Shown: positions 6,145-28,943 of the stretch, piece after piece
Layout: the number at the start of each line of letters is the position of its first letter
How positions within the stretch are numbered: the first letter of the stretch is position 1
DNA from: Myxococcales bacterium
GTDB lineage: Bacteria; Myxococcota_A; Polyangia; Palsa-1104; SHYY01
Direction of reading: 5' to 3'
NCBI GenBank assembly: GCA_023248875.1
Contig: JAHFDT010000003.1
Location: forward strand, 1-59,248
DNA length: 59,248 bases
Position numbers and translations under genes: made by a program
The notes under the pieces: model-generated
Databases searched by the model: none
Told to the model about the DNA's origin: nothing
Seen by the model: only the letters and a program-made list of their open reading frames with translations

Positions 6145-6184
6145 GGCATTAGCCTGTTAACTAGAAAATCTCTTGGAGGAGCTG

Positions 6185-7357: not shown

Positions 7358-7407
7358 AGGTAAACGTTCACGGGGTGAGAAATGGAACGTTGTGATTTTG
7401 GGCACTT

Positions 7408-7482: not shown

Positions 7483-7505
7483 TGTGAACGGAGACAAATA
7501 AAACA

Positions 7506-8594: not shown

Positions 8595-8597
8595 CGG

Positions 8598-10577: not shown

Positions 10578-10591
10578 CGAGGAGGCCACCT

Positions 10592-11515: not shown

Positions 11516-11943
11516 AGATTCTGGGCATCGACCACGTCGCGGTGTGTGTGCCTGATGTGGGCGACGCATCGGAGCTGTGGCGCAGCCTGCTGGGTCTCGC
11601 CGGCGGACCCCGTGAGGTGGTCGAAGCACAAAAGACCGAAGCCGCCTTCTTGCTCACGCCCGAAGAGGCGGGGGCCTGCGTGGAGCTGATCGCACCGGCG
11701 GGCGGTAACCCCGGCCTCGAGAAATTTCTCGAGCGGCGTGGCGGGCTGCACCATATTGCATTCACCGTCGAAGATCTGGCGGGCGCGCTGCATGAACTCG
11801 ATGAGCGGGGGGTGCAGCTCATCGACAGGGTCCCCCGGCCCGGCGCGCGGGGCCACACGGTTGGATTCCTGCATCCCTCGGCGTGCGGTGGCACACTCAT
11901 CGAATTGGTGGAACATGCCCAGGTTAGAGGATTGGAGAGATGA
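11512..11943 (+). CDS. mce: Methylmalonyl-/ethylmalonyl-CoA epimerase (VOC fold)
   Basis: IDHVAVCV, GGLHHIAF, FLHPSACGGTLIELVE. Confidence 0.88.
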   Translation: MKILGIDHVAVCVPDVGDASELWRSLLGLAGGPREVVEAQKTEAAFLLTPEEAGACVELIAPAGGNPGLEKFLERRGGLHHIAFTVEDLAGALHELDERGVQLIDRVPRPGARGHTVGFLHPSACGGTLIELVEHAQVRGLER

Positions 11944-13128
11944 ATGAATCGCATTGAGCTGGGAACGGTTCCTACCCCCCTCGGCGAGCTGCCGGAGAGC
12001 ATGTTGGCTTGCACGATTCGCAAAGAGCGGGAAGGCGAGCCGGCGAAATCGATGCAGATCGAGGAGGTGCCGATCCCTGAGATCGGTGCCAACGAAGCGC
12101 TCGTGCTGGTGATGGCGGCCGGGGTCAACTTCAATGGCGTGTGGGCCGCGCAGGGCAAACCGATTTCGGTCTTCCGTATGCACAAAGATCCGTTCCATAT
12201 CGCCGGCAGTGATGCGGCGGGGATCGTCTGGAAGGTGGGCAGCGATGTGCGGCGCTGGAAGCCGGGCGACGAGGTGGTGGTCCACTGCAACCAGTCGTGC
12301 GGCCAGTGCCCCGAGTGCAACGGGCTCGATCCGATGGCCTGCTCCGAGCAAAAGATCTGGGGCTACGAGACCAACTGGGGATCGTTTGCGCAGTTTACCA
12401 AGGTGCAGGCGCAGCAGCTCGTGCGCAAACCGAAGCAGCTTGGCTGGATCGAGTCAGCCAGCTATGGACTCACCTACTTTACCGCCTATCGCATGCTGGT
12501 CGACCGCGCGGAGGTGAAGCCGGGCGACCACGTGCTGGTGTGGGGAGCGGCGGGCGGTCTCGGCATTTTCGCGGTGCAGCTCTGCCGCCTGATGGGGGCG
12601 CATCCCGTTGCGGTAGTCTCCTCGGCGAGCAAAGCGGAGCTGGTGCGGAAACTGGGCGCCAACTTGGTGATCAATCGTCGCGAGTATGATTTCGTGCGGC
12701 GGCCTGACGATACTCCCGAGTTGGCCAAGCATCGCCAGGCCGAGCTCAAGCGCTTCGGCGGCGAGATCCGGCGGCTCACCCAGGGCAAAGATCCCGATAT
12801 CGTGTTCGAACATGTGGGGCGGGAGACCTTTTCCTCGTCGGTGTTTCTCGCCAAGCGCTTTGGCAAGATCGTGATCTGCGGTGCCACTTCCGGCTATGAG
12901 CTCGATTTCGACGTGCGCCATCTGTGGATGCGGCAGAAGTCGATCATCGGCTCCCATTTTGCCAACGCCTATCAGGCGGAGCGCGCCAACGAGCTCATTC
13001 TCGATGGGCGAATCAGACCGGTCCTCGATCAGGTGTTCGAGTTTCACGACACGCCGCAGGCGCACCAACTCATGAAAGAAAACCGCCACCAGGGCAAGCT
13101 AGCGATCCGGATCCAGGCGCCGAAGTAG
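11944..13128 (+). CDS. ccr: Crotonyl-CoA carboxylase/reductase
   Basis: VMAAGVNFNGVW, HIAGSD, IWGYETNWGSFAQF, LWMRQKSIIGSHFAN. Confidence 0.93.
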   Translation: MNRIELGTVPTPLGELPESMLACTIRKEREGEPAKSMQIEEVPIPEIGANEALVLVMAAGVNFNGVWAAQGKPISVFRMHKDPFHIAGSDAAGIVWKVGSDVRRWKPGDEVVVHCNQSCGQCPECNGLDPMACSEQKIWGYETNWGSFAQFTKVQAQQLVRKPKQLGWIESASYGLTYFTAYRMLVDRAEVKPGDHVLVWGAAGGLGIFAVQLCRLMGAHPVAVVSSASKAELVRKLGANLVINRREYDFVRRPDDTPELAKHRQAELKRFGGEIRRLTQGKDPDIVFEHVGRETFSSSVFLAKRFGKIVICGATSGYELDFDVRHLWMRQKSIIGSHFANAYQAERANELILDGRIRPVLDQVFEFHDTPQAHQLMKENRHQGKLAIRIQAPK

Positions 13129-13164: not shown

Positions 13165-13195
13165 AATGTAGCTACTTCGACGTATAATGTAGCTA
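13165..13195 (+). promoter_or_regulatory. TA promoter/operator: TATAAT plus repeated AATGTAGCTA
   Basis: AATGTAGCTA at 13165-13174 and 13186-13195 (palindromic GTAGCTAC core in copy 1); TATAAT 13183-13188, 6 nt before the ATG. Confidence 0.7.
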
Positions 13196-13482
13196 TGTCG
13201 CGACGAACCAATACTCGCGCCGTTGGCGTGAAGGATCTGAAGAACCGGCTCAGCGAGGTGCTGCGCCGAGTGCGCAAGGGCGAGGCTGTCACCGTCACCG
13301 ATCGCAGTCGGCCTGTCGCCATCCTGGTGCCGCTACCTGCCGGCGATCGCAGCGACACGGTTCGCGAACTGGTGCGCGCAGGCCGGCTCGCCTGGGCGGG
13401 GAGTAAGCCGACCGGATCGGCTCATCCTTCTTCGCTCAGCGGCCCTTCCGTCTCTGACGCGGTGGTCGAGGATCGTCGGTGA
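13195..13482 (+). CDS. Phd/YefM-family antitoxin
   Basis: VGVKDLKNRLSEVLRRVRKGEAVTVTDRSRPVAILVP; overlaps PIN toxin start. Confidence 0.9.
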   Translation: MSRRTNTRAVGVKDLKNRLSEVLRRVRKGEAVTVTDRSRPVAILVPLPAGDRSDTVRELVRAGRLAWAGSKPTGSAHPSSLSGPSVSDAVVEDRR

Positions 13483-13901
13483 CGGTCTATTTCGACACCA
13501 GTGCACTCGTGAAGCTGTACGTGCGCGAAGTGGGTTCTCGAAGGGTCCGCGATTGGATGGGTCGAGCGACGATGGCGGCATCATCGCGGGGGGCCTACCC
13601 TGAGGCAAGGGCCGCGTTCGCTCGCCGTCACCGAGAAGGGGGCCTTTCTGTCGCCGGCTTGCGCAGGGCGGTCATAGACTTGGATCGGGATATGGGTTCG
13701 TTCGTTACCGTTGAGTTGGCGCACTCTGTCGCTCGCAGGGCAGGAGAGCTCGCCGAACGGCACGCGCTGCGCGGGTTCGATGCAATTCATCTTGCGAGCG
13801 CTCTCGAGCTAGGCCACCTACTGGGAGAGGGACCGACTTTTCTCGCGTTTGATGAGCGGCTTGTTAGGGCAGCAGCGGCAGAGGAGCTCAGGGTGGGGTG
13901 A
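13479..13901 (+). CDS. vapC: VapC/PIN-domain toxin
   Basis: YFDTSALVK, LRGFDAIHLASA, FDERL. Confidence 0.9.
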   Translation: MTVYFDTSALVKLYVREVGSRRVRDWMGRATMAASSRGAYPEARAAFARRHREGGLSVAGLRRAVIDLDRDMGSFVTVELAHSVARRAGELAERHALRGFDAIHLASALELGHLLGEGPTFLAFDERLVRAAAAEELRVG

Positions 13902-18467: not shown

Positions 18468-19880
18468 CTAATACTCGAATGCGCCGATCGAGTAGCCGCT
18501 CTTGCCCGGCCGCGGACGGCCGTCGTGGTCGGCGAGCGGTGCGCTGGTGCCCTGTGAGCTCGGCACACCACGACCGACAAGCGTACAGTTCACAGAGTGA
18601 TTGACCAGATGGTAGTCGTCGCTGCTGGCGGCTTTGAACGTCATGTCTGCCATACAGCCGCTGAGATTGAGGTTGCCGTTTTGTGAAGCGCCGCTGTAGG
18701 CGCAATGGTCGAGCTGGCAGCTGCCACTGACCTCGGCGGCGGCTCCGCTATTCCCAAACCAAACTGAATTTGCGACCAGCGGCGCCTGCAGACAGTGGAG
18801 ACCCGATGCGGTGGCATTCGCCTTGGCCTGGTTGTAGGCCACCGTGTTGTTGAGTAGCACGGTAGCGCCGCTGCCGTGCGATGAAATGTAGAGGCCGCCG
18901 AAGGTCGCATCGCTACCCCCATTGCGCGCCACCAGGGTGTTGGTGATGACAAAATTGCTCGACTGCAAAAGCAGTCCCCCCTGCGCATTGCCGGGACCGA
19001 TGGTGTCCGCATCGAATTCGAGCTCGCACGAGTTGCTATCGACGCCGTGTTGAAGGTTCTTCCTCACCGTCGAGCGGATCAGTTTTATCCGCGTGGTCGC
19101 AGGATCGCCCAAGCTCTTGCACTGGATGCCATGGCCGTTGGCGCCGACGGCATTTTCGATCACGAAGCCGTCGAGGCTTAGTGAAATCTTGTGGCTCCCG
19201 TCGGAAGAGAGCAGGAGCACCGGCTGGTTGATGAGATTGGCGGTGAGCACTGGCTGCCCGAGGCCGACCAGGGTGACGATGAAGTCGCCCGCCGGATTCT
19301 GCACCTTGAGGTTTTCCATGTAGCTGCCAGTCGCCACCACGACAACCTTCTTCGTTGCGGCGCCCGCATCGAGGCCGCTCTGGAAGGTACAAAAGGGGGC
19401 GCCTACAGTTCCACTGCCGGGGCAATTCTTGGCCGCCGCGTTGACGTAGATCAGCTCCGCAGGGTCGCCGCAGAAACCCTGGCTGCAATAGCCGCTCGTG
19501 CATTCGCTGTGGGCACTGCAGGCGCCGCAATTGCCATCGCTCTGGCAGGCGAAGTGGCGGGCGGCGCAGTCGCTGGCGCTGAAGCACTCGAGGCAGGCAC
19601 CGCTCTGGGCGCATAGCGGGCGAGTAGGATGGCTCACCGCACAATCGTCGGTGCCACCATCGTTGTGGCCGCAGGAGACACATTTTCCACCGCTGCAGAT
19701 CGGCCGGCTGGGATCGAGGCACTGGCTGGCGCTCGTACATTGGACCCCGCCATCGCCTCGCGGCCGACAGGTGTGGGTGCGCAGATCACACAACTCCGTC
19801 GGATTCGCGCAGCTCGATGCGCAGTAGAGCGGATCGAGCTCGGTGCAGCCCCAGAGGAGAAGCAGCAGCGCGTACTTCAT
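18468..19880 (-). CDS. Lipoprotein with Cys-rich repeats and right-handed beta-helix domain
   Basis: MKYALLLLLWGC lipobox; C-x4-C repeats; GTVGAPFCTF, N..GG/ITNTLVARN/NNTVAYN rungs; ends SIGAFEY. Confidence 0.8.
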   Translation of the reverse strand: MKYALLLLLWGCTELDPLYCASSCANPTELCDLRTHTCRPRGDGGVQCTSASQCLDPSRPICSGGKCVSCGHNDGGTDDCAVSHPTRPLCAQSGACLECFSASDCAARHFACQSDGNCGACSAHSECTSGYCSQGFCGDPAELIYVNAAAKNCPGSGTVGAPFCTFQSGLDAGAATKKVVVVATGSYMENLKVQNPAGDFIVTLVGLGQPVLTANLINQPVLLLSSDGSHKISLSLDGFVIENAVGANGHGIQCKSLGDPATTRIKLIRSTVRKNLQHGVDSNSCELEFDADTIGPGNAQGGLLLQSSNFVITNTLVARNGGSDATFGGLYISSHGSGATVLLNNTVAYNQAKANATASGLHCLQAPLVANSVWFGNSGAAAEVSGSCQLDHCAYSGASQNGNLNLSGCMADMTFKAASSDDYHLVNHSVNCTLVGRGVPSSQGTSAPLADHDGRPRPGKSGYSIGAFEY

Positions 19881-19954
19881 GCCGACCCAATACCTTTGTG
19901 GGGAAACTGCTGCAAGTGCTATCGTCGCCGGCGCCATCATCACGGAGGAGAGCG

Positions 19955-22495
19955 ATGGAACGGGAGATGATCTGCAAGCGCTGTGCGGGTGGTGGCAGCG
20001 GCCCCTTCGTGCTGCCGGGCGCGCGCCCCTACTACGTGCCCGATCGCGTGTGCGATGTGCGCCACATCCGCGTCGAGGTCGAGCTCGATTTCGCCACTGG
20101 GCGAGTGGCGGGCCGCTGCACTCAGTTTGTGTCGCCGATCAACAGCGGCTCGACGCGGCTGGTGCTCGATGCCGTCGAAATGGGGGTCGAAGCAGTGACA
20201 GTGGCTTCCCACGAGTGGAAGTTCGACTACGATGGGAAGAAGCTGGTTCTCGATCTCGGCGATCGAAAGGCCGGCGAGGAGATCGAGCTGACCGTCCGCT
20301 ACGCCTGCACACCGCGACGCGGGCTCTACTTCATCCGTCCCGATCGCTACTACCCGAACCGCCCGACGCAGGTTTGGTCGCAGGGTCAGGACGAGGACAA
20401 CCGCGCCTGGTTCCCCTGCTTTGACCATCCGCACGAGAAGTCGACGTCGGAGGTAATTGCAACAGTGCCGGAAAAGATGACGGTGGTATCGAACGGCCGC
20501 CTCGTTGAAGTGCGGCCGGGAAATGGCACGCGTACGTTCCACTATCGCCATGAGGTGCCGCACTCGAGCTATCTCATCACGTTGGTCGCGGGCGAATATG
20601 TCGAGCTCAAAGGCGCCGCGGCCGGTGTCGAGCTCAAGTACCTCGTGCCGCGTGGCCGCGAGGAGGAGGCGCAGCGCTCGTTTGGTCGCACGGGGGAAAT
20701 GATCGAGCTCTTTTCGCGCCTCACCGGCCAGCCCTATCCCTACCCGAACTACACTCAGGTGGTGGTGGCGGAGTTCATCTTCGGCGGCATGGAGAATACC
20801 TCCGCGACCACGCTCACCGACAACACGCTGCACGATGCCCGCGCCCACCTCGATTTCTCATCGGAGCCGCTGGTTTCGCATGAGCTCGCCCATCAATGGT
20901 TCGGCGATCTTCTCACTTGTCGTGACTGGTCGCAGGGGTGGCTTAACGAAGGGTTTGCCACCTATTTTGAGATTCTCTGGAAGGAGCACAGCGAGGGGGG
21001 CGATGCGGCCGACTACGATCGGCTGCTCGATCAGGAGGCCTACCTCGAGGAGGATGGCGATCGCTACCGTCGCGCGATCGTCTCGAATCTGTTCCACGCG
21101 CCGATCGATGTGTTCGACCGCCACCTCTACGAAAAGGGCGGCACGGTGTTGCACATGCTGCGCCACCAGCTCGGCGACGAGCGCTTCTGGAAGGCGATCC
21201 GTCACTACGTCGCCAAGCATCGCGGCGGCTCGGTGGAGAGCCGCGATCTGGCTCGCGCGGTGGACGAAGCGACCGGCGTCAACGTCGACCGTTTCTTCGA
21301 ACAATGGGTGTTCAAGGCGGGTTATCCCGATCTTCATGCTGAGTATTCCTGGGATGACGAACACAAGTTGGCGCGAATCGTGGTCGAGCAGAAGCAGGAG
21401 GTGAAAGATCTCACGCCGCTGTTTGCGCTGCCCCTCACTGTGCACTTCGTCATCGATGGCCAGGAGCGCGACGTGAAGATCGATTTCGAAGAGGCCAAGA
21501 CCACGTTTCTGTTGCCGCTCGGCGCCAAGCCGACGCAGGTGGTGCTCGATCCGGGAAATCATTTCTTGAAGGCGCTCGATTTCAAGAAGCCGGAGGAGCT
21601 GTGGCACGCGGAACTTGCCGGCGCACGCTCGGCGATCGATCGAATTCGCGCCGCGCGGGCGCTCGGCAAAGCGGCCGATCCGTCGGCGATCGCGCCGCTC
21701 GAAAGGGCGCTGCAAAGCGATCCCTTTTGGGCCGTGCGCGGCGAAGCGGCGGCGGCGATCGGCGCCATTCGCACCGAGGCTGCCCGGGTGGCGCTCGGCG
21801 CCGCCGCACCGAAGGAGTCCCATCCCAAAGCGCGCCGGATGATCGTGCGCGCGCTCGGCGCGTTCCGCCACGATGAGCAGGCGGGAGCCGCGGCCGGCCA
21901 GCTGCTGGCAGGCGATGCCAGCTACTTCGTCGAGGCCGAGGCGGCGCTAGCACTGGCCAAAACGCGCAGCCCGAGCGCCTACGAGAAATTGCTGGAGGCG
22001 ATGGCGCGCCCCTCCTACCTCGAGGTGATCCGCTGCAATTGCCTCTCAGGTCTCGCCGAGCTGCGCGATGAGCGGGCCGTCGCAGTCGCGATCACGGAAG
22101 CGGCGCGCGGCAAACCGCCCACTTCACGCCGCGCGGCCATCAGTGCACTCGGACTGCTCGGTGACGAATTCCTTTCTGCCCGCCGGCCCGCGCTCGAGGC
22201 GCTCACCGAACATCTCGAGGATCCCGATTTTCGCGCCCGGATTGCCGCCGTCGAGGCCCTGAAAACCCTGGGCGACCGGCGCGCGATCGGTGCGCTCCAG
22301 CGGGCGGTCGAGTCCGACCTCGATGGGCGCGTCCGCCGGCGGGCGCGCGAGGTGGCACGCCTTTTGGCGGAGGGGCTGCGCGCGGAAGAGAAGAGCTCGC
22401 AGCTGCGCGAAGAGCTCGACAAGGTGCGCCAGGCGGGCGCCGAGCTGCGGGAGCGGCTGCTTAAGCTCGAGGCGATCAACGCGGTGCGTCAGTAG
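19955..22495 (+). CDS. M1 family aminopeptidase with C-terminal HEAT repeats
   Basis: WFPCFDHP, GGMEN, HELAHQWFG..NEGFA, YEKG; HEAT repeats and coiled-coil end. Confidence 0.93.
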   Translation: MEREMICKRCAGGGSGPFVLPGARPYYVPDRVCDVRHIRVEVELDFATGRVAGRCTQFVSPINSGSTRLVLDAVEMGVEAVTVASHEWKFDYDGKKLVLDLGDRKAGEEIELTVRYACTPRRGLYFIRPDRYYPNRPTQVWSQGQDEDNRAWFPCFDHPHEKSTSEVIATVPEKMTVVSNGRLVEVRPGNGTRTFHYRHEVPHSSYLITLVAGEYVELKGAAAGVELKYLVPRGREEEAQRSFGRTGEMIELFSRLTGQPYPYPNYTQVVVAEFIFGGMENTSATTLTDNTLHDARAHLDFSSEPLVSHELAHQWFGDLLTCRDWSQGWLNEGFATYFEILWKEHSEGGDAADYDRLLDQEAYLEEDGDRYRRAIVSNLFHAPIDVFDRHLYEKGGTVLHMLRHQLGDERFWKAIRHYVAKHRGGSVESRDLARAVDEATGVNVDRFFEQWVFKAGYPDLHAEYSWDDEHKLARIVVEQKQEVKDLTPLFALPLTVHFVIDGQERDVKIDFEEAKTTFLLPLGAKPTQVVLDPGNHFLKALDFKKPEELWHAELAGARSAIDRIRAARALGKAADPSAIAPLERALQSDPFWAVRGEAAAAIGAIRTEAARVALGAAAPKESHPKARRMIVRALGAFRHDEQAGAAAGQLLAGDASYFVEAEAALALAKTRSPSAYEKLLEAMARPSYLEVIRCNCLSGLAELRDERAVAVAITEAARGKPPTSRRAAISALGLLGDEFLSARRPALEALTEHLEDPDFRARIAAVEALKTLGDRRAIGALQRAVESDLDGRVRRRAREVARLLAEGLRAEEKSSQLREELDKVRQAGAELRERLLKLEAINAVRQ

Positions 22496-22549: not shown

Positions 22550-22852
22550 ATGGGTTCTCTCGATCTGAGCTTTCGCAAGCAGGGCGATCCGGTGACGCGA
22601 ACGCTCGCGCAGGAGACACTGATTGTTCCGGTGGCGAGCAGCTACGTCGACCTCGATTCCGTCTACGTACTGGACGATGTGGGGGCGCTCCTCTGGGGGT
22701 TGGTCGATGGCACGACGACGGTGCGCGGCATGGTCGAGGCGGTGACGCGCGAATTCGAAGTGGCGGAGGAGCAAGCAGAAAGCGACATTCTGTCCTTTCT
22801 GGGTTCGCTCCAGCAGAGCGGACTCATCGAACCCTGTGAGCGCGCCGGATGA
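22550..22852 (+). CDS. PqqD-family RiPP recognition element
   Basis: 100 aa; LDDVGALLWGLVDG...EFEV...DILSFLGSL...GLI pattern; overlaps rSAM start. Confidence 0.9.
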   Translation: MGSLDLSFRKQGDPVTRTLAQETLIVPVASSYVDLDSVYVLDDVGALLWGLVDGTTTVRGMVEAVTREFEVAEEQAESDILSFLGSLQQSGLIEPCERAG

Positions 22853-24099
22853 TCGAGCGCTCCTACAGCGAGTTCAGCCTGGGCGTCACGCAACGGGCCC
22901 TCGGCGCGGGCCGCGTACCACTCAATGGAACCCTCGAGCTGACCCGCCGCTGTCCCCTCGAATGCACCCACTGTTATAACAATCTTCCCGTCGGTGACCG
23001 GTCGGCGATCGCAGGCGAACTCAGCTACGCCGAGCTGTGCCGGGTGATGGAGGAGATGGCCGAAGCCGGGACGTTATGGCTGCTCCTCACCGGCGGCGAG
23101 ATCCTAGCGCGCCCGGATTTTCTAGAAATTTATACCTATGCCAAAAAGAAGGGCTTTCTGATCACGCTCTTTACCAATGGCACGATGATCACCGCGGAGA
23201 TCGCCGACCATTGGGCGCGCTATCGCCCCTTCGCGATCGAGATCACGCTCTACGGCCACACGCGCGAGACTTACGAACGTCTCACCCGTGTGCCGGGATC
23301 GTTCGATCGCTGCCGGCGTGGGATCGAGCTCCTGCTCGAACGAAAATTGCCGCTCCGGCTCAAGACCGTGGGAGTGGCGACTACGCGCCACGAGATTCTC
23401 GAGATGAAACGCTTTGCCGAGGAGCTTGGGCTCGAGTTCAAGTTCGACTCGATGATCAACCCGCGCATCGATTGCTCGTTGAGCCCGCTGGAGGAGCGAA
23501 TGACCCCGCAGCAGATCGTCGAATTCGATCTCGACGATCCCAAGCGCACCGAGGGCTGGCTGCGCTTTGCCGAGGCCTACAACCACCCGATGCACGAAAC
23601 GACCGGCCAGCGCGACCAGCTCTATCATTGTGGTGGCGGCGTCAATGCCTTTGCGATCGATCCCTCCGGCCATCTGAGCATCTGCGTGCTCTCGCACAAC
23701 GATCGGTACGATCTCCGCCGCGGTAGCTTCCGCGAGGGCTGGCAAGAGTTTCTCGGCAAGGTGCGGGACCGGCGCACCACGCGCCCGACCCGCTGCGTCG
23801 AGTGCGGACTCAAGGCGATGTGCGGCATGTGTCCCGCCAACGGGGAGCTCGAGAATCGGGATCCCGAGGAGCCGGTGGACTTTTTGTGCCACGTGGCCCA
23901 TCTGCGCGCGGCCTCGCTCGATATTCCGGTGCGCCCGCACGGCGAATGTCCCTACTGCACGAGCGGCGTTCACCATGAGGCGCTCATGCAATCGTCGCGC
24001 GAGATCAAGAGTGGCATAAGAGATCGCCAACCGCGGACGCGGCTGCAGGTGGTGCGGGAGGCGGCGGGGGGCGGCTGCACGAGCTGTGGGGGTTCATGA
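22849..24099 (+). CDS. Radical SAM/SPASM peptide maturase
   Basis: CPLECTHCY (CxxxCxxC), TGGE, TNG; SPASM C..G....IDPSG...C and CVECGLKAMCGMC. Confidence 0.93.
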   Translation: MIERSYSEFSLGVTQRALGAGRVPLNGTLELTRRCPLECTHCYNNLPVGDRSAIAGELSYAELCRVMEEMAEAGTLWLLLTGGEILARPDFLEIYTYAKKKGFLITLFTNGTMITAEIADHWARYRPFAIEITLYGHTRETYERLTRVPGSFDRCRRGIELLLERKLPLRLKTVGVATTRHEILEMKRFAEELGLEFKFDSMINPRIDCSLSPLEERMTPQQIVEFDLDDPKRTEGWLRFAEAYNHPMHETTGQRDQLYHCGGGVNAFAIDPSGHLSICVLSHNDRYDLRRGSFREGWQEFLGKVRDRRTTRPTRCVECGLKAMCGMCPANGELENRDPEEPVDFLCHVAHLRAASLDIPVRPHGECPYCTSGVHHEALMQSSREIKSGIRDRQPRTRLQVVREAAGGGCTSCGGS

Positions 24100-24266
24100 G
24101 CGGAGCCGACCTGAGCAGGCGTAGGCCCTACCGGCGCCCCGAGCTGGTGCGGGTGCCGCTGCGTCCGGAAGAGGCGGTGCTCGGCAACTGCAAATCCTCA
24201 GCGACGACTGGGCCGATCCAGGCCTCCTGCACCGTGCCGGTGACCTGTTCGGGAACAGGATCCTAG
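24096..24266 (+). CDS. Putative RiPP precursor peptide, 56 aa (not in ORF track)
   Basis: MSGADLSRRRPYRRPELVRVPLRPEEAVLGNCKSSATTGPIQASCTVPVTCSGTGS; ATGA overlap with rSAM stop; YxxPxL leader motif; three Cys in a Ser/Thr/Gly-rich C-terminal half. Confidence 0.85.
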   Translation: MSGADLSRRRPYRRPELVRVPLRPEEAVLGNCKSSATTGPIQASCTVPVTCSGTGS

Positions 24267-24428
24267 TGTCCTGTCTCAGAAATTCGCGCCATATCTCGCC
24301 GGTCTCTTTCGTCCCTACCGTCGTTGCTCGTCGGTTAAATACCGCCAGTATTCACCCTCCTCGCGCCTCGGCAGGAACGAAACATCCTCGCCGATATATG
24401 GCGCGAATTTCTGAGACAGGACACTAGG
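24262..24428. mobile_element. MITE-like element with 33-bp perfect terminal inverted repeats
   Basis: CCTAGTGTCCTGTCTCAGAAATTCGCGCCATAT (24262-24294) and its exact reverse complement (24396-24428); CTAG at both ends; no transposase. Confidence 0.85.
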
Positions 24429-24436
24429 TCGGCGAG

Positions 24437-25330
24437 GTGATGGAACCCGAGCAGTTTCAACTCCGGATCGCCGGCCTTACTCTCCAAGTGAACCGCCAGC
24501 TGGATGGACCGCAGTTCATGCTGCCGATGCCGACGGCGCGGTTTGAGGTGGAGCCGACCTCTCCTCCCGATGCGGTCTTCGACGTGGCCTGGGCCGATCT
24601 GCCCTGCGAGGCCACGGGGCGCCCGGTGTTCGACTCGGGCGGCGTCTGGCGCCTGCACGAGCAGGGCGATGAGCTGGTTTTCTCCCTGCGCGCCAGCACT
24701 TTTGGTGAGCAGCCCTACCAGCTCTCTCGCTGTGCCCCCAATTTTCGCCACGGCACGGTGCTGCTCCACCGCGGCTGCCACAATGCAGCCCAGCCGCTCT
24801 ATCCGCTCGCCTATCCGCTCGATGAGCTGCTGATGGTCCACCTGTTTTCGCGCGGCTACGCCGTCGAGGTGCACGCCGCGGGGGTGGTCGATGCGAAGGG
24901 CATAGGGCAGCTCTTCCTCGGCGCCTCGGGAGCGGGCAAGAGCACCACCGCCAAGCTGTGGGAAAAGGAGCCGGGTGTGCGCCTCCTCTCCGACGACCGT
25001 ATCGTGCTGCGGGAGCAGGAGGGGGCGATCTGGATGCATGGCACCCCCTGGCATGGTGAAGCCGGTCTAGCGTCGCCCGATTTGGCGCCGCTCGGCAACC
25101 TTTTCTTCCTGCAACAGGCGCGCGAGAATCGGCTTGCACCCCTCGGAGGCGCCACCGCGGCCGCGCAGCTCTTGGCCTGCGCGTTTTTCCCCTTTCACGA
25201 ACGTTCCGGGATCGATTTTACGATCTCCCTCTGCCAGCGCATCACCCGCCGTGTTCCGTGCCACGAGCTTTCGTTTGTGCCCGACCGATCTGTCATCGAG
25301 CGGCTACGCAGCGAAGGCGTGGTGGCATGA
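24437..25330 (+). CDS. HPr kinase-related P-loop protein
   Basis: VHAAGV, GASGAGKST Walker A, LLSDDRIVL, GTPWHG. Confidence 0.8.
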   Translation: MMEPEQFQLRIAGLTLQVNRQLDGPQFMLPMPTARFEVEPTSPPDAVFDVAWADLPCEATGRPVFDSGGVWRLHEQGDELVFSLRASTFGEQPYQLSRCAPNFRHGTVLLHRGCHNAAQPLYPLAYPLDELLMVHLFSRGYAVEVHAAGVVDAKGIGQLFLGASGAGKSTTAKLWEKEPGVRLLSDDRIVLREQEGAIWMHGTPWHGEAGLASPDLAPLGNLFFLQQARENRLAPLGGATAAAQLLACAFFPFHERSGIDFTISLCQRITRRVPCHELSFVPDRSVIERLRSEGVVA

Positions 25331-25758
25331 TCGCAAAACAGCTGTTCCCGGATCTCCTTCGGGAGGCGTTGTCGCTGGGGCGCAGGGTTCGCTTTCATGC
25401 CATGGGCCGCAGCATGAATCCCACCATCGTGGATGGGGATGCCATCCGCTTGGCTTCCGTGATCCCCGCTGCGATCGAAGTGGGCGATGTGGTGCTGTTC
25501 CAGCTCCCGCGCGGTCTCGTGGCCCACCGGGTGGAGCGGATCGAAGTACGCCAAGACGATGCGCTGGAATTCCTGGTGAAGGGCGATGCTGCCGAGAGCA
25601 CTGGCGAGTGGGCGACCGCCCATGAGGTCGTCGCGCGGGTAGAGGCGGTGGAGCGCGATGGCCAGCTGATCTCGCTCGGAGGCATTGGAGAGAGATGGCG
25701 CCATTCCCTATGGGAGCTGTGCGCGGGCATCGTACAGCGGGTGAGGCGTATGCGATGA
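25327..25758 (+). CDS. S24/S26-family peptidase (Ser-His type, no obvious TM)
   Basis: GRSMNPTIVDGD, VGDVVLF, VAHRV, KGD. Confidence 0.82.
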   Translation: MIAKQLFPDLLREALSLGRRVRFHAMGRSMNPTIVDGDAIRLASVIPAAIEVGDVVLFQLPRGLVAHRVERIEVRQDDALEFLVKGDAAESTGEWATAHEVVARVEAVERDGQLISLGGIGERWRHSLWELCAGIVQRVRRMR

Positions 25759-27983
25759 GAACGCTGGCGATGACCCTGTTGGTGTCGACGATGGCGGCGG
25801 CGGCCGAGGTGCGAATTCGTATCGCCGTCCACCACGAGGGCTACTATCGCGTGACCCAGCCCGAGCTCGTGGCAGCGGGGCTCGATCCCACGGTCGACCC
25901 ACGCAAGCTGAGCCTCTTTGTCGACGGTGCCGAGCAGGCGATGCGGGTGTTGGGCGAAGCGGACGGCCGCCTCGACCCGGCCGACGCGGTGGAATTTTAT
26001 GGCACCGGCATCGATAGCCCCTTTAGTGATCGCCACATCTATTGGCTATCCATCAGTGACCCGCCCAGTCTGCGCATCGCCGAGCACTCCAACGATGGCT
26101 CAGGCGCTGCCATCACCAGCTTTTCCCACCGGATCGAGCGCCGCGTGCGCTCCTGGTATTTCGCCGGCCTTCTCAATGGCGAGGCATCCAATTTCTTTGA
26201 AGCTCCCACGGGAAAATGGCCCCTCGACGAGCCGATCGACATTTCCCATCTCGATGACAAGAGCGGCGCCTCGCTGCAGGTCATCCTGCAGGGCGTGACG
26301 ACCGCTCAGCACCATCTTTTGGTGAGTCTCAATGGGCTCGCCATCGCGGAAATGCACTTTGCCGGGCAGGCGCAGTCTACGCTCGACGTGGCGCTCACAG
26401 CGGGCAAGCTTCAAGAGGGCACCAATCTCGTGACCCTCACGCCGCTCGAGGATTCAAAGGCCATCCACGCGGCGGTGGAGCGCATTCGTATCGGCTATTC
26501 GCACACCCTGGCGGTCGATGGCGCGGTACAGCCACTTGGGGCCCCCGGGGGCGCGCAGGTGGCGCTGCATGGTTTTTCCAGCGATGCCATCCACGTGCTC
26601 GATGTCACCGATCCGAAGGCGCATACGGAGCTCGCGGCCCAGATCCTGGCCGAGGGCAAGAGTTTTGCAGCGACAGTGCAGCCGGGAGGCACCGGGATGC
26701 GCCGGCTGTTCGCTTACCAAGGGAAGGCGGTGAGCCACCCGCTCGAAGTGCGCGCGGTTCACTCCAGCGATTGGCTCCATACCGGGCGTGCCGAGCTGGT
26801 GATCATTACGCACCGCGATTTCTATACCGCCGCGGAGGCGCTAGCCAATCTGCGGCGCGGGCAAGGTTGGCAGGTGGCGCTCATCGACGTCGACGAGATC
26901 TTCAACGAGCTCAACGGCGGGCAGCGCGATCCGCTGGCGATCAAGCAGCTGCTGGAAACGGCCTGGAAGAGCTGGGCGGTGCGGCCGCGGTTTGCCCTTC
27001 TCATCGGCGATGCTAGCGTCGATCCGCGCAATTTCCTCGGCAAAGGATCGTTTGATTTCGTCCCGACCCAATTGCTTGATGCGCGCAGCTCCGGGGTGGC
27101 GATGGAGACTGCTTCGGACGACTGGTTCGGTGATTTCGATGGCGATGGGCTGGCCGAAGTGATGGTTGGACGCCTGCCCGTGCGCACCGCGACCGAGGCG
27201 GAGCACGTGCTCCAGAAGATCATCGGCTACGGCTGGGCGGGGGACGATGACTCGTGGCGCAAGCGGGCGCTCTTCATCGCCGATGAAAAGCTCGGCTACG
27301 ATTTCGAGGACCAGGCCCATCGCGCGGAGAAGCGTCTTCCCGCGGGCTTCGAGGCCCTGGAGGTGTTTGCTGGGCAGCAGGGCAAACTGCAGCGCGAGGC
27401 CATCGTCGCCGCGATCAATCAGGGCGCGCTGCTGGTCAACTACTCGGGCCATGGCGCTCAGGGGCAGTGGAGCGATTTTTTCAAGAACGCCGACATTATG
27501 GGGCTGACCAATGGCGCCCGCCTGCCGGTATTTTTCAACATGACGTGCCTCAACGGGATGTTTCACGACGCGCTTTTCGGCGATGTCCTCGCGGAGGCGC
27601 TGCTCAAGGCGCCCAGTGGCGGTGCGGTGGCGGTGATCGCCTCGTCCATGTTGCTCGATGCCGGCCCCCAAGATCAGTTGAACCAGGGGTTGGTCGAGCA
27701 GTTCGGCAAGGCGTCGCTCGGCGAAGTGCTGCGGTATGGCAAGAGCACGACCACCGATGGCGATACGCGAAATACCTACCTCCTGTTCGGCGATCCATCG
27801 CTGTTTGGCCAACCCCTCGCACCGCAGCCCCAACCTGACATGGGTTCGCCGATGCCCGATGGGGGAATGGGGGGCATGATGGGTGGATGCGGGGTGGGTT
27901 TGCATCGCCCTGCCGCAGCGGGGGGGCTAGCCATCGCCGGCCTGCTACTCCTCGCGCTGTGCCGACGTATGCTACTTTTCTAG
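25755..27983 (+). CDS. Secreted C25 (gingipain-like) cysteine peptidase with MYXO-CTERM-type tail
   Basis: Signal peptide; GYYRVT N-domain; LIGD, SDDWF, GRLP, NYSGHG (His), MTCLNG (Cys), LFGDP; GCGVG...LLLLALCRR. Confidence 0.87.
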   Translation: MRTLAMTLLVSTMAAAAEVRIRIAVHHEGYYRVTQPELVAAGLDPTVDPRKLSLFVDGAEQAMRVLGEADGRLDPADAVEFYGTGIDSPFSDRHIYWLSISDPPSLRIAEHSNDGSGAAITSFSHRIERRVRSWYFAGLLNGEASNFFEAPTGKWPLDEPIDISHLDDKSGASLQVILQGVTTAQHHLLVSLNGLAIAEMHFAGQAQSTLDVALTAGKLQEGTNLVTLTPLEDSKAIHAAVERIRIGYSHTLAVDGAVQPLGAPGGAQVALHGFSSDAIHVLDVTDPKAHTELAAQILAEGKSFAATVQPGGTGMRRLFAYQGKAVSHPLEVRAVHSSDWLHTGRAELVIITHRDFYTAAEALANLRRGQGWQVALIDVDEIFNELNGGQRDPLAIKQLLETAWKSWAVRPRFALLIGDASVDPRNFLGKGSFDFVPTQLLDARSSGVAMETASDDWFGDFDGDGLAEVMVGRLPVRTATEAEHVLQKIIGYGWAGDDDSWRKRALFIADEKLGYDFEDQAHRAEKRLPAGFEALEVFAGQQGKLQREAIVAAINQGALLVNYSGHGAQGQWSDFFKNADIMGLTNGARLPVFFNMTCLNGMFHDALFGDVLAEALLKAPSGGAVAVIASSMLLDAGPQDQLNQGLVEQFGKASLGEVLRYGKSTTTDGDTRNTYLLFGDPSLFGQPLAPQPQPDMGSPMPDGGMGGMMGGCGVGLHRPAAAGGLAIAGLLLLALCRRMLLF

Positions 27984-27986: not shown

Positions 27987-28919
27987 ATGGCGATCCCCAC
28001 CTATTTAATGTCCTACCCGGCCGCGCAGTGGTCGATCCGTGGGGCGGCCAACTTTCGTTCGCAGGCGCGTAGCACCACCAGCCCCCGTCGCGCCTTTCGC
28101 GAATGGCTGACGCTCGCCGATGCCATCCTGCGCGCCGGCGGCCCCATTCTCGTGATGCCGCCGGCGGCGACTGAAACCCCGTTGACCGGGATGATCTACA
28201 CCGCCAACCTCGGCCACCTATTTCGCGACCAGTTTCTACTGTCCAACATGTCGGTCGCGCATCGCCGGGCCGAGCGCGACATCGTCCGCTCCTTTATGGA
28301 AAAGGCGGGTGTTTCGACTCGGGACGCCTCGGCCGAATGGGAGGGCCAGGCCGAACTGCAGTGGCTCGGCGGAAATCGTTTTGTGGCTACCTACGGGGTC
28401 CGCTCGGCACGCGAGAGTGTGGCCGAGCTGCGACCGCTCTTGCCGCCCAATACGAAGCTCCTCGAGCTCCAGATCCGTGACCCCTTCTTTCATGGCGATA
28501 CCTGCTTGAATCCGATCACCAACCGCGCAGGCGATCTCGTCCTGTTGGCGCACGGCAGTGCGTTCATCGGTGCGACGCTCGAAACGCTGCGCGACTTTCT
28601 TGGTTCGACGGGGGAGGTGGTGGCACTCGACGAAGGGGACACGCTGGCCTACGCCTGCAACGCGCTATGCGTGGGCGGTACGCTGCTCATGCCCTCGGGG
28701 GTCTCCGCCTCGCTCCGCGGGCAGCTGGTGCGCCGGGGTTTTGTGCTCGAAGAGCTGGAGCTCCCCGAGCTCTTCGGCAAGGGTGGTGGCGGACCACGCT
28801 GTCTGGTCAACGAGCTGCGCGGCCTCGTGCTAAACCCGGGTGCGCCCTCCTATGCGGAGCTGCGCGACGAGCTTTACAAACTGGTCGAAAGCTATCCGGA
28901 AGGGGCGCTAAACGCTTGA
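27987..28919 (+). CDS. Amidinotransferase / dimethylarginine dimethylaminohydrolase family protein
   Basis: MIYTAN, WEGQAE, FFHGDT, ACNAL, KGGGGPRCL. Confidence 0.8.
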   Translation: MAIPTYLMSYPAAQWSIRGAANFRSQARSTTSPRRAFREWLTLADAILRAGGPILVMPPAATETPLTGMIYTANLGHLFRDQFLLSNMSVAHRRAERDIVRSFMEKAGVSTRDASAEWEGQAELQWLGGNRFVATYGVRSARESVAELRPLLPPNTKLLELQIRDPFFHGDTCLNPITNRAGDLVLLAHGSAFIGATLETLRDFLGSTGEVVALDEGDTLAYACNALCVGGTLLMPSGVSASLRGQLVRRGFVLEELELPELFGKGGGGPRCLVNELRGLVLNPGAPSYAELRDELYKLVESYPEGALNA

Positions 28920-28943
28920 CACCCCATGAGCTTCCGATATAGT
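28916..28943 (+). promoter_or_regulatory. Sigma70-type promoter of the motor operon
   Basis: TTGACA 28916-28921, 16-bp spacer, TATAGT 28938-28943. Confidence 0.65.

Follow-up and report, generated by a model that had tools for sequence, protein, structure and literature searches.

In lasso-peptide clusters, HPr-kinase homologues are reported to modify linear precursors by phosphorylation at the C-terminal Ser, showing little further specificity, after which a nucleotidyltransferase attaches sugar to the phosphate (PMC8498205). A locus within the 59,248-nt stretch of Myxococcales DNA analysed here (the window) resembles the paeninodin/pseudomycoidin-type clusters in its discrete PqqD-like RRE, Y-x-x-P leader, HPr-kinase homologue and peptide ending in Ser. 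It is unlike lasso clusters in that a radical SAM (rSAM)/SPASM enzyme and a Ser-His-Asp peptidase replace the cyclase and the B2 protease, the cores carry conserved Cys and hardly any Asp or Glu, and a C25 peptidase belongs to the set.

Sactipeptide and ranthipeptide pathways (CteB, SkfB, PapB) share with the locus a seven-Cys SPASM rSAM enzyme, a core with Cys residues and leader recognition through an RRE. The structural neighbours of the rSAM protein include CteB and SkfB, and models of PapB and StsB match it weakly. Unlike in those pathways, the RRE here is a separate protein and not an N-terminal domain of the rSAM enzyme, which is 13-19% identical to the nearest solved enzymes (PqqE, SuiB, anSME and CteB) and scores far under the cut-offs of curated models. 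To our knowledge, a kinase, a Sec11-like peptidase and a C25 peptidase are not part of sactipeptide or ranthipeptide pathways.

SynChlorMet (SCM) is the only curated system that gives best or near-best matches for three of the proteins, with the NCBIfam models ScmC matching the kinase-like protein, ScmD the PqqD protein, and ScmE and ScmF the rSAM protein, but at scores of 27.7 against a cut-off of 125 (ScmC), 31.2 against 100 (ScmD), 78.7 against 400 (ScmE) and 56.5 against 400 (ScmF). These scores fall under the cut-offs, so the locus is not a member of the SCM cassette; it also has one rSAM gene where SCM has two. We know of no characterised product of the SCM cassette.

A conserved gene cassette around a Cys-containing peptide

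A preliminary description of the window had proposed a candidate new RiPP system made of six co-oriented genes with ATGA overlaps at every junction except one that holds a MITE. All six ORFs are present on the + strand:

22550-22852, + strand: discrete PqqD-family RRE protein, 100 aa (Pfam PqqD 4.1e-16, above cut-off)
22849-24099, + strand: radical SAM enzyme, 416 aa, including a full SPASM domain (Pfam Radical_SAM 4e-18)
24096-24266, + strand: candidate precursor peptide, 56 aa, with a three-Cys core and a Ser end (homologues adjoin rSAM genes)
24262-24428, no strand: MITE-like insertion, 167 nt (40-nt terminal inverted repeats)
24437-25330, + strand: HprK/PEPCK-fold P-loop protein, 297 aa, a probable kinase (weak sequence matches, fold and motifs)
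25327-25758, + strand: soluble Sec11/SipW-like (S26B-type) Ser-His-Asp peptidase, 143 aa (alignment with SEC11A)
25755-27983, + strand: PorU/gingipain-like C25 cysteine peptidase, predicted to be secreted, 742 aa (Pfam Peptidase_C25 6.5e-79)

ATGA overlaps are read at four of the five junctions, namely 22849-22852 (PqqD/rSAM), 24096-24099 (rSAM/peptide), 25327-25330 (kinase-like/peptidase) and 25755-25758 (peptidase/C25), of which the overlaps at 25327 and 25755 use internal ATG starts and not the longest ORFs. The MITE occupies the fifth junction, between the peptide gene and the kinase-like gene, and the latter starts at GTG 24437 or ATG 24440. The Pfam matches listed above bear out the earlier domain calls of RRE, rSAM and C25. 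The earlier statement that lasso cyclase and B2 protease are missing also stands, as a Pfam scan of the window ORFs revealed neither an asparagine-synthase-like cyclase nor a transglutaminase-like B2 protease.

The cassette was found again in several hundred bacteria of soil and groundwater, with at least 581 related loci, mostly in Acidobacteriota and Myxococcota. Co-occurrence was measured in the best 80 of these loci, using the window proteins as tblastn queries and counting only loci with enough flank, and the rates therefore hold for the close family rather than for all 581. Among these best 80, the rSAM/SPASM gene is central in every locus, a homologous peptide adjoins it in 76 of 77 evaluable loci, the PqqD gene lies upstream of it in 71 of 77, the kinase-like gene is present in 67 of 68 and the Sec11-like peptidase gene in 53 of 58, and a C25 homologue lies no more than 8 kb away in 34 of the 42 loci with both flanks. 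In 24 loci the genes follow PqqD>rSAM>peptide>kinase>peptidase>C25, more than share any other order, and the enzymes are ~60% identical across phyla. That gene order and a homologous peptide are shared across 80 related loci indicates that the arrangement is beyond chance. In the remaining six of the 77 loci evaluable for PqqD, no PqqD gene was found in the fetched flanks even by profile search, and hence the RRE is not obligatory. An NTP_transf_5 gene, which is not among the genes of this window, occurs in 30 of the 80 loci.

These data support the reading as a candidate new RiPP system on the two points by which it could have failed computationally: a conserved peptide does lie beside homologous rSAM genes, within a six-gene cassette that is itself a conserved family, and no identity with a characterised cluster was found, all NCBIfam matches being far below curated cut-offs. 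Full-text literature searches found no description of the six-gene set or its product.

The peptide and its predicted RRE partner

The YxxPxL leader proposed earlier is present as Y12-x-x-P15-x-L17, and Y12 and P15, together with L29, C32 and K33, never vary among 45 aligned homologues. A 22-residue leader block, Y..P...EAVLGxCK, is ungapped in 79/79 peptides, with a mean pairwise identity of 0.68, and the CK motif is found in every one. The core is Ser/Gly-rich, 18-26 residues long and variable (mean pairwise identity 0.40 among the 44 peptides of modal length), and yet its end is nearly constant: the last Cys stands five residues ahead of the C-terminal end in 76/79 peptides, and 76 peptides close with Ser, the other 3 with Thr. 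Three Cys are present in 72/79 peptides, and 77 of 80 loci contain a single peptide motif. The precursor peptide has no Pfam or NCBIfam match.

The discrete PqqD protein, in which R17 and W49 are invariant (72/72), would bind the leader (Y-x-x-P ... EAVLG-x-CK) and present the peptide, as judged from family knowledge and from a complex prediction. The latter gives weak support, with a score of 0.47 against 0.00 for the best control, and its pass may mirror likeness to RRE-leader complexes already solved. The runs share at least 92% of contacts, and the partner pLDDT is at least 52. Of 80 solved complexes, 58 reach the mark that defines a pass, against 2 of 110 mismatched pairs; at scores of 0.60 or below it was reached by 7 of the 80 solved complexes and by both of the passing mismatches.

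Proposed modifying enzymes

In the rSAM protein, the CX3CX2C cysteines (C35, C39, C42), the seven SPASM cysteines (C261, C279, C316, C319, C325, C328, C347) and likewise C367 and C370 are invariant in 21 aligned homologues. Its fold neighbours are the peptide-modifying SPASM enzymes PqqE (2.5e-11), SuiB, anSME, CteB, ChlB and SkfB, and its NCBIfam matches all lie far under cut-off. The enzyme may add at least one cross-link through the conserved Cys residues of the peptide. Thioethers of the sactipeptide/ranthipeptide type would be the likeliest product, a tentative choice to which we give somewhat less than an even chance; fold search does not tell thioether, C-C, epimerase and oxidase chemistries apart, and neither sequence nor fold allows one of them to be assigned.

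The call of an HPr-kinase-like protein was upheld by weak matches to ScmC (1.5e-6) and HprK (8.3e-5) in NCBIfam and to Hpr_kinase_C (1.1e-4) in Pfam, by the HprK/PEPCK fold and by an invariant P-loop. The AF2 model (pLDDT 95.3) has PEPCK (2.3e-7) and HprK/P (3e-5) as its top Foldseek folds, Pfam ScmC is found in 17-51% of the members of the nearest ESM-Atlas clusters, and residues G162, S164, G167, K168, T170, S185, D186 and R188 are invariant in 38 sequences, as are the motifs GxSGxGKT and SDD-R. Although the sequence matches (E 1e-4 to 1e-6) are under curated cut-offs, together with the modelled fold and the motifs they make a kinase the probable assignment. By analogy with the lasso kinases, this protein would phosphorylate the terminal Ser/Thr hydroxyl of the linear peptide, and an NTP_transf_5 protein, at loci that have one, may further decorate the phosphate. 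The idea is strengthened by the Ser/Thr ends of the peptides, by the kinase P-loop and fold, and by the lasso-kinase precedent reported in PMC8498205; on balance we lean slightly towards phosphorylation of the terminal Ser.

Two peptidases, one soluble and one likely at the surface

The smaller peptidase aligns with human SEC11A (E 1.2e-4) and has Ser, His and Asp in the same motifs, SM.P, HRV and GD, as the S26B signal peptidases SEC11A and SipW; S29 (62/62), H67 (62/62) and D87 (61/61) are invariant. Matches to sigpep_I_arch (9.6e-11) and to TIGR02228 (41.8 against a cut-off of 51.85) are under the cut-offs. Unlike SEC11A and SipW, the stand-alone enzyme lacks both a signal peptide and a hydrophobic segment typical of a membrane anchor, and it is encoded in a peptide-modification operon context. 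Its active site is thus expected in the cytoplasm, where it may cut off the leader, most likely after V-L-G of EAVLG, with small residues at -3 and -1.

Fusions link this peptidase to its neighbours. It is joined through a transmembrane segment to C25 in the related loci L065 and L038, and to NTP_transf_5 in L009. Twelve of the best 150 of 45,596 matches to the peptidase profile are at least 338 aa long, and Pfam found C25 in three of 15 long matches, NTP_transf_5 in two (P0144, P0172) and an N-terminal P-loop region in one, suggesting that the peptidase is probably fused to the kinase in other genomes. An optional nucleotidyltransferase that is sometimes fused to the leader protease is also a feature of lasso clusters; in those the fusion is to B2 (PMC8498205), whereas in L009, P0144 and P0172 it is to the Sec11-like peptidase. 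A leader-peptidase role fits the invariant Ser-His-Asp residues and these fusions, and we give it an even chance.

The C25 protein aligns with RgpB (1e-15) and PorU 6za2 (1.7e-15), catalytic His and Cys included, and H566 and C598 are invariant in 33/33 sequences. As in PorU and the gingipains, the catalytic domain is of the C25 type, and the likeness to PorU extends N-terminal of it, although the NCBIfam PorU model, matched over residues 41-703, gives 237 bits against a cut-off of 420. The protein is shorter than PorU (742 versus 1,156 residues in 6za2), and the host phyla of the related loci, judged from their record titles, are not Bacteroidota; the window shows no T9SS context. No NCBIfam sorting-signal model matches the protein, and a signal-like segment at the N terminus and a hydrophobic tail at the C terminus suggest a surface location, where the exported product or a partner may be its target. 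C25 is linked genetically to the cassette; in some species a single membrane segment joins it to the cytoplasmic peptidase.

Interpretation and alternative readings

These sequences are best read as a new family of RRE-dependent rSAM RiPPs, with phosphorylation of the C-terminal Ser as in lasso clusters and a leader peptidase of a new type; the product would be a small peptide, cross-linked and possibly phosphorylated. That the set is a RiPP maturation cassette for this peptide, working by rSAM modification, terminal Ser phosphorylation and proteolysis, is, in our judgement, likely, each single step being less certain. Counting against it, none of the gene families neighbouring the 80 loci is a conserved exporter that could bring a cytoplasmic product to an extracellular C25 enzyme (the next commonest family, an ABC-type ATPase, occurs in only 10/80), 8 of the 42 loci with both flanks have no C25 gene within 8 kb, and the same genome encodes another C25 paralogue in an unrelated setting. 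The missing exporter would suit a system centred on the protease, in which the modified peptide is no free natural product but a dedicated C25 partner (an inhibitor in the cytoplasm or at the surface, a maturation factor or a substrate attached to the cell surface by transpeptidation), as would the nearness of C25 in the 34 other loci, the ATGA overlap of its gene with the peptidase gene, the peptidase-C25 fusions (L065, L038 and three of 15 long profile matches) and the similarity to the PorU sortase model and 6za2. A core as variable as this one (pairwise identity 0.40) is, however, ill suited as the ligand of one conserved active site, the other five genes stay together in the eight loci without C25 nearby, the PorU score is under its cut-off, and attachment chemistry is not readable from sequence; we regard such a system as unlikely. 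The architecture, in which a PqqD protein and an rSAM/SPASM enzyme work on a small peptide before peptidases do, also recalls PQQ and mycofactocin, and a peptide-derived small cofactor or other intracellular metabolite that keeps few residues and stays inside the cell would likewise suit the missing exporter. PqqE is the closest solved relative of the rSAM enzyme, MftC is among its best NCBIfam matches, the enzymes are well conserved across phyla, and the CK motif, the C-x4-Ser end and a hydroxyl on the last residue do not vary. The cores differ from those of PqqA or MftA in that they vary in length and sequence, the curated models are missed by far (PqqE 66 against 381, PqqD 27 against 46, MftC 89 against 265), no conserved oxidoreductase, cofactor-tailoring or cofactor-using gene lies near the related loci, and a kinase and a secreted protease belong to the set, which leaves this alternative decidedly unlikely.

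Two further explanations appear far weaker than our reading as a RiPP maturation cassette. A divergent lasso-peptide cluster, with its cyclase and B2 protease elsewhere in the genome, would account for the YxxP leader, HPr-kinase homologue and C-terminal Ser known from paeninodin-type clusters (PMC8498205) and for the best NCBIfam match of the PqqD protein, which is to the lasso PqqD chaperone model, though with 38.6 bits where the cut-off is 80. An rSAM/SPASM gene is nevertheless central to 80/80 loci, no cyclase or B2 gene is among the window ORFs, and the near absence of Asp and Glu from the cores (26 of ~1,830 residues) means that the acidic residue for a macrolactam is mostly missing, making this highly improbable. 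It is hardly credible that the small ORF stays open merely by chance, with the enzymes acting on another substrate: although the peptide of the window has no family match and is not a called gene in the protein collection (no 100% match), the ORF is conserved as protein in 76/77 loci from several phyla, with an ungapped 22-residue block and a stop fixed directly after Ser or Thr.

A repeat family inserted at the peptide stop codon

The MITE, ~163 nt plus a duplicated CTAG, sits in the TAG stop codon of the peptide gene, and its 40-nt inverted arms are 95% complementary. Five further full-length copies, 97-99% identical, are present in the same genome (contigs C52, C287, C124, C143 and C128), along with three copies ended by contig ends and two diverged ones (77-78%). 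In the six-copy alignment, identity starts and stops precisely at CTAG, with unrelated sequence on either side; the MITE is a real repeat family. The insertion is recent and lineage-specific and leaves both neighbouring reading frames intact. The predicted transcript fold of the element is very stable (-93.1 kcal/mol, z -9.8), and the hairpin could lower expression of the downstream genes in this one genome.

A six-gene cassette on one strand

The preliminary description had placed six genes in one orientation with ATGA overlaps at every junction except one, which is occupied by an inverted-repeat insertion (MITE). All six open reading frames are real and run in the + direction, with the internal ATG starts at 25327 and 25755, rather than the longest frames, taken for the last two genes, and the four overlaps can be read directly at 22849-22852, 24096-24099, 25327-25330 and 25755-25758. 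These frames and overlaps, together with the recurrence of the set in related loci, confirm the six-gene system as it was described.

Genes of the cassette (coordinates, strand, product and database matches)
22550-22852, +, PqqD/RRE protein (Pfam PqqD, 4.1e-16)
22849-24099, +, Radical_SAM (rSAM)/SPASM protein (Pfam, 4e-18)
24096-24266, +, 56-aa peptide (without a Pfam or NCBIfam match)
24437-25330, +, kinase-like protein (weak matches: ScmC, 1.5e-6; HprK-related kinase B, 5.3e-5; HPr(Ser) kinase, 8.3e-5; Hpr_kinase_C, 1.1e-4)
25327-25758, +, archaeal-type signal peptidase I (TIGR02228, 9.6e-11, 41.8 bits vs cut-off 51.85)
25755-27983, +, Peptidase_C25 (Pfam, 6.5e-79, 266 bits vs cut-off 23)

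None of the six proteins reaches a curated NCBIfam cut-off. The base composition of the cassette is unremarkable against its surroundings, and the rSAM and kinase-like genes are each present in a single copy in the genome. Rfam at the gathering score gave zero matches within the window, and promoter and terminator counts in the window were not above those of shuffled sequences, with no consensus promoter 5' of the PqqD gene; the same scan placed an 11-of-12 promoter-type site at 28916-28943, 5' of an exbB-like gene. The sequencing runs that contain this stretch are DNA contig runs of one study, none of them RNA.

Two flanking genes were considered as further parts of the cassette. An M1 aminopeptidase whose C-terminal part carries HEAT/PBS-lyase repeats (19817-22495, +) lies directly upstream, and a co-oriented amidinotransferase/dimethylargininase-like gene (27987-28919, +; NF045659, 2e-22, below the cut-off) begins 4 nt past the C25 stop codon. 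Because a homologue of either was found in 0 of 80 related loci, we regard both as neighbours and not as parts; the amidinotransferase-like gene is probably a neighbour only. One homologue of the cassette peptidase (P0146) is fused to HEAT repeats, and a link to the repeats of the M1 aminopeptidase may be coincidence.

A MITE inserted into the stop codon of the peptide gene

The MITE (24262-24428), which has 40-nt inverted ends, separates the peptide gene from the kinase-like gene, and the reading frames on both sides are intact. Other copies in the same genome comprise five full ones (97-99% identity; contigs C52, C124, C128, C143 and C287), three cut by contig ends (C267, C182 and C280) and two that have diverged (C125 and C299); in the aligned copies, identity spans from CTAG to CTAG and the flanks are unrelated. 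The left CTAG includes the TAG stop codon of the peptide gene, and removal of the MITE leaving one CTAG restores a stop codon followed ~10 bases on by the kinase-like start, indicating that the insertion struck within the stop codon and recreated it. The ~165-nt family has at least six near-identical copies in this 4.0-Mb draft genome and was therefore active recently. The transcript is predicted to fold into a hairpin of -93.1 kcal/mol (z -9.8), which may dampen expression of the downstream genes or may only stabilize the peptide message.

The cassette recurs across phyla

Of 8,000 scored candidates, 5,676 were relatives of the rSAM at E <= 0.001, and the best 119 non-self matches were 58-67% identical to it. 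A pattern scan of a species-level genome set returned at least 600 stretches, 581 of which encode an rSAM relative. We compared the best 80 of these at least 581 loci, and the rates given here describe those 80 only. By record title they belong to Acidobacteriota (57), Myxococcota (8), Binatota (2), Nitrospirota, Chloroflexota, Armatimonadota and Bacillota (1 each), with 4 labelled Pseudomonadota and 5 unlabelled.

Locus content was determined by tblastn with the proteins of the window, counting loci with sufficient flank. A conserved peptide beside homologous rSAMs, on which the preliminary description had made its reading depend, was present in 76 of 77 evaluable loci, the kinase-like gene in 67 of 68, PqqD in 71 of 77 and the peptidase in 53 of 58; the rSAM is central in all 80. 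A C25 gene lies within 8 kb in 34 of the 42 loci with two flanks. The gene order of the window is the commonest (24 loci), and in 14 loci the C25 gene is upstream on the same strand. A nucleotidyltransferase gene (NTP_transf_5) was found within 8 kb in 30 of the 80 loci and is absent from the window; it was rejected as a part of this cassette, there being none on the window's contig, and the copies in this genome are on other contigs, one of them within a polysaccharide cluster. All-against-all clustering of neighbouring ORFs, which is noisy in GC-rich loci (antisense ORFs, merged clusters) and was used for commonness only, revealed no further common family, the next being an ABC-type ATPase in 10 of 80 loci; no conserved exporter for the peptide was found among the common neighbours of the 80 loci.

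In a tree of 80 rSAM sequences (FastTree; the window and 79 of the 80 loci, one row with a stop inside the tblastn range being left out), phylum labels were clustered, requiring 10 changes compared with 17.6 in shuffles. The rSAM of the window pairs with that of a Myxococcales MAG (L019) with support of 88 and long branches. No rSAM at E <= 1e-80 was found in 200 sampled other genomes of the same phylum, one of the same order included, which suggests that the distribution of the cassette is patchy.

Individual loci depart from the common arrangement. A PqqD profile search of the eight loci without a tblastn match gave nothing up to E = 1, and PqqD is absent from the fetched flanks by both methods in two clades (L005, L008, L010, L036, L037, L041 and L070). 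Two of these loci, L036 and L037, do not differ in their rSAM and peptide sequences, yet one MAG is labelled Acidobacteriota and the other Dehalococcoidia (Chloroflexota), likely reflecting a binning error or one contig in two bins rather than gene transfer. An Armatimonadetes locus (L064:6221-6512) keeps PqqD, rSAM, kinase-like protein and peptidase, and what separates its rSAM gene from its kinase-like gene is only a degraded leader-like frame, a decayed or mis-assembled peptide gene. Loci L050 and L074, whose peptides differ, are separate cassettes from two contigs of a single Myxococcales MAG, and the cassette is therefore multicopy in some genomes.

The peptide has a conserved leader, a variable core and a fixed C-terminus

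The peptide set comprises 79 sequences, 78 of them distinct, and the precursor motif occurs once per locus in 77 of 80 loci. A 22-residue block, Y-x-x-P...L-R-P-E-E-A-V-L-G-x-C-K, is present in 79 of 79 with zero indels and a mean pairwise identity of 0.68; 45 aligned sequences show no variation at Y12, P15, L29, C32 or K33, and the G of V-L-G is almost invariant (G in 75, A in 4). The region that follows CK is 18-26 residues long, with a mean pairwise identity of 0.40 among the 44 peptides of modal length 23. The cores consist of Ser, Gly, Thr, Ala, Cys and Pro and are nearly uncharged (15 Asp, 12 Lys and 11 Glu among ~1,830 residues). Three Cys residues are present in 72 of 79 peptides, most commonly spaced C-13-C-6-C-5-end (44/79), and the last Cys is exactly five residues ahead of the C-terminal residue in 76. 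That residue is Ser in 76 peptides and Thr in the other 3, and this invariant terminal hydroxyl is a new and telling feature of the family. With its conserved leader, variable core and fixed Cys residues, the peptide reads as a RiPP precursor.

PqqD and the rSAM/SPASM enzyme

PqqD lies above the Pfam PqqD threshold and scores 38.6 bits against the lasso model NF033536 (cut-off 80). In the RRE-Finder work, discrete lasso-type RREs are reported to co-occur with rSAM genes, with ~300 of them classed as false positives for the lasso model (PMC7470986); the PqqD family of the cassette may be among them. The predicted complex of PqqD with the peptide scored 0.47 compared with 0.00 for the best control, in a range (<= 0.60) that held passes of 7 of 80 solved complexes and of both passing mismatched pairs, the benchmark mark being reached overall by 58 of 80 solved and 2 of 110 mismatched pairs. 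Runs agreed in at least 92% of contacts, with partner pLDDT of at least 52. Because solved RRE-leader complexes exist, likeness to them may explain the pass.

The CX3CX2C motif of the rSAM (C35, C39 and C42) and seven SPASM cysteines (C261, C279, C316, C319, C325, C328 and C347) are invariant in 21 sequences, as are C367 and C370. The nearest solved sequences are PqqE (4.3e-11; 4.2e-13 by profile) and SkfB, and the fold neighbours of a moderate AlphaFold model (pLDDT 72.8) are PqqE, SuiB, anSME, MoaA, CteB, ChlB, SkfB, TigE and EpeE, at 13-19% identity. Curated maturase families (PapB, StsB, AlbA, ScmE and others) were not reached, with best scores of 50-103 bits vs cut-offs of 265-850. On sequence and model, the rSAM is predicted to be a SPASM enzyme that modifies peptides and belongs to a separate clade; the fold search does not reveal which reaction it performs.

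The kinase-like protein resembles HPr kinases

The P-loop residues G162, S164, G167, K168 and T170 of the kinase-like protein, together with S185, D186 and R188, are invariant in 38 homologues; we take the last three to resemble the HprK/P active-site motif. The model (pLDDT 95.3, pTM 0.92) matched ATP-dependent PEP carboxykinases in Foldseek (best 2.3e-7, query TM 0.45) and HprK/P (3e-5; for 1kkl_B, target TM 0.47). The features of HPr kinase/phosphorylase type are a P-loop GxSGxGK(S/T), a PEPCK/HprK fold and a putative substrate ending in Ser; the scores did not reach the cut-offs of Hpr_kinase_C (22.2 vs 33.3 bits) or TIGR00679 (22 vs 240). The nearest ESM-Atlas clusters contain Acidobacteriota proteins, with Pfam ScmC in 17-51%.

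Among 14 control genomes, only Deinococcus radiodurans and Bacteroides thetaiotaomicron had NTP_transf_5 above the cut-off, and the same two were the only ones with a ScmC match, below its cut-off. These shared matches hint at a wider kinase and nucleotidyltransferase module.

A soluble Sec11-like peptidase is coupled, and sometimes fused, to a C25 peptidase

The small peptidase aligns with human SEC11A at the Ser (SM.P), His (HRV) and Asp (GD) motifs, and S29 (62/62), H67 (62/62) and D87 (61/61) are invariant. It shares this catalytic Ser/His/Asp set with S26B signal peptidases (Sec11, SipW and archaeal forms) but lacks their membrane anchor: no anchor-like hydrophobic segment was found in the stand-alone protein, which should therefore work in the cytoplasm. 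In the C25 protein, a His (SGHG) and a Cys (TCLNG) take the places of the catalytic pair in an alignment with gingipain R and are invariant (33/33). Residues 41-703 match the PorU sortase model NF033707 with 237 bits, below the cut-off of 420; the N-terminus of the protein is signal-like, and its C-terminal tail is hydrophobic.

In two loci (L065 and L038), one open frame runs from the peptidase domain through a basic stretch and a single hydrophobic helix into C25. The basic flank of a membrane helix stays cytoplasmic (the positive-inside rule), so the peptidase of this fusion should be inside and C25 outside. In a third locus (L009) the peptidase is fused to NTP_transf_5, and the peptidase ORF of L041 is extended N-terminally by ~90 residues.

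A search of a word-indexed collection returned no longer fused relatives of the peptidase, which counts for little; a profile search did find fusions. The profile matched 45,596 cluster representatives at E <= 0.001 (14,368 at 1e-10 and 476 at 1e-30), and 12 long forms (at least 338 aa) were among the best 150 of the 45,596. A Pfam scan of these 12 and three of 285-300 aa (n = 15) detected C25 in three, NTP_transf_5 in two, and HEAT repeats, DUF7483, a methyltransferase and polysaccharide-export domains in one each; five had the peptidase only or nothing. In the remaining form (P0193), the C-terminal peptidase is preceded by ~320 residues with a weak P-loop match, which are probably the kinase-like protein.

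Relationship to known systems and alternative explanations

The nearest named system is SynChlorMet (SCM), a curated NCBIfam cassette, but scores against cut-offs exclude membership: ScmC 27.7/125, ScmD 31.2/100, ScmE 78.7/400 and ScmF 56.5/400, that is, at most about one fifth of the cut-off for ScmC, ScmE and ScmF and less than one third for ScmD. Searched against the whole genome, the ScmC model reached 27.2 bits, also below its cut-off. The cassette shares with phosphorylated lasso clusters an accessory set (discrete RRE, HPr-kinase homologue, terminal Ser and optional nucleotidyltransferase) and with sacti- and ranthipeptide pathways the type of core enzyme (rSAM/SPASM). The peptidase-NTP_transf_5 fusions closely parallel a nucleotidyltransferase-protease fusion reported for phosphorylated lasso clusters (PMC8498205). 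The cassette resembles a hybrid, with a phosphorylated-lasso accessory set around a sacti/ranthipeptide-type core enzyme, and a member of no curated family tested. Identity with a characterized cluster, which would have contradicted the claim of a new system, was found neither by curated cut-offs nor in the literature searched, mostly that outside subscription journals, where we did not find the gene set described; the available parts of PMC8692599 and PMC13642348 do not treat it.

Several other explanations can be weighed against an RRE-dependent rSAM RiPP system. That the peptide is a chance ORF is excluded by its conservation across loci. A divergent lasso cluster fails as an explanation despite the shared accessory set: PqqD is below the curated lasso cut-off, the cores are acid-poor, and neither the asparagine-synthase-like lasso cyclase (C protein), by Pfam, nor the transglutaminase-like leader protease (B2) was found among the ORFs of the window, so that the earlier statement that both are missing holds. 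The likeness to PqqD and PqqE would also suit a cofactor of the PQQ or mycofactocin kind, which we nevertheless judge very unlikely, given the poor fit of a variable core, the missing tailoring enzymes and scores well short of the curated cut-offs (PqqE 66.1/381, PqqD 26.8/46, MftC 88.8/265).

A different possibility is that the system centres on proteolysis, the peptide being a partner, inhibitor or substrate of C25. The peptidase-C25 fusions and the missing exporter speak for this arrangement, but the variable core fits it poorly and C25 is absent from 8 of the 42 loci, and we consider it improbable. As far as computation goes, the gene set, its conservation, the motifs, folds and fusions support the interpretation as an RRE-dependent rSAM RiPP system, and three features are unusual for one: a predicted C-terminal-Ser kinase, a soluble Sec11-type peptidase and a coupled PorU-like C25.

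A proposed maturation pathway

In an RRE-dependent rSAM RiPP pathway of this kind, PqqD would bind the Y-x-x-P leader, as family knowledge and the weak complex prediction suggest, and the rSAM would cross-link the core through its Cys residues; SPASM enzymes that act on Cys-rich cores most often produce thioethers (sactipeptides and ranthipeptides). The kinase-like protein would then be expected to phosphorylate the terminal Ser, by parallel with HPr-kinase homologues of lasso clusters, which are reported to phosphorylate the C-terminal Ser of linear precursors (PMC8498205). The Sec11-like enzyme is the best candidate for leader removal. Signal peptidases prefer small residues at -3 and -1, making V-L-G a plausible cut site; alternatively, the C25 enzyme may cut at the invariant Lys three residues past V-L-G.

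These steps can be joined into a more specific scheme, a new RiPP class that matures across the membrane by way of a phosphate-activated Ser and C25 surface coupling, although as a whole it is distinctly unlikely to be correct. The cytoplasmic Sec11-like peptidase, sometimes tethered by a helix to the outside C25, would pass on the Cys-cross-linked peptide. The conserved C-x4-Ser end (76/79) would imply that the terminal Ser is activated by phosphorylation, either for elimination and closure of a ring with the Cys five positions upstream or for phospho-linked attachment via NTP_transf_5, and a sortase-like C25 (cf. PorU) would join the product to a cell-surface acceptor.

If the RiPP interpretation is true, the cassette would add rSAM/SPASM maturases of a new clade that have a separate lasso-like RRE, would show HPr-kinase homologues acting on a C-terminal Ser outside lasso peptides, and would introduce a soluble Sec11-type Ser-His-Asp enzyme as a RiPP leader peptidase, a role that is not known to us, nor found in the literature searched, for any RiPP. 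The tie to C25, fusions included, raises the question of how a surface protease is linked with a peptide pathway in the cytoplasm. Both Acidobacteriota and Myxococcota are abundant in soil, and to our knowledge few peptide natural products have been characterized from Acidobacteriota; here one sharply defined cassette recurs in 581 or more of the stretches scanned from the species-level genomes, with 79 natural core variants ready for use.

Genomic surroundings

In one related locus (L002, 10738-14768), the cassette and NTP_transf_5 adjoin genes for the export and synthesis of polysaccharide (Wza-like, sugar transferase and Wzc-like), and in the genome of the window NTP_transf_5 likewise lies beside such genes (contig C10:117-5910). 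A peptidase homologue (P0258) continues into a Wza-like protein. A link of the cassette to surface polysaccharide is possible. The genome encodes a second C25 protein of 1,297 aa (contig C259:799-4692, - strand), beside FtsQ-like, AAA ATPase and eCIS-core-domain genes, and peptide-maturation genes are absent nearby. Upstream in the window, a Phd/YefM antitoxin and PIN-domain toxin pair (13195-13901, +) is located within an acyl-CoA/methylmalonyl-CoA mutase gene cluster (6173-13128).
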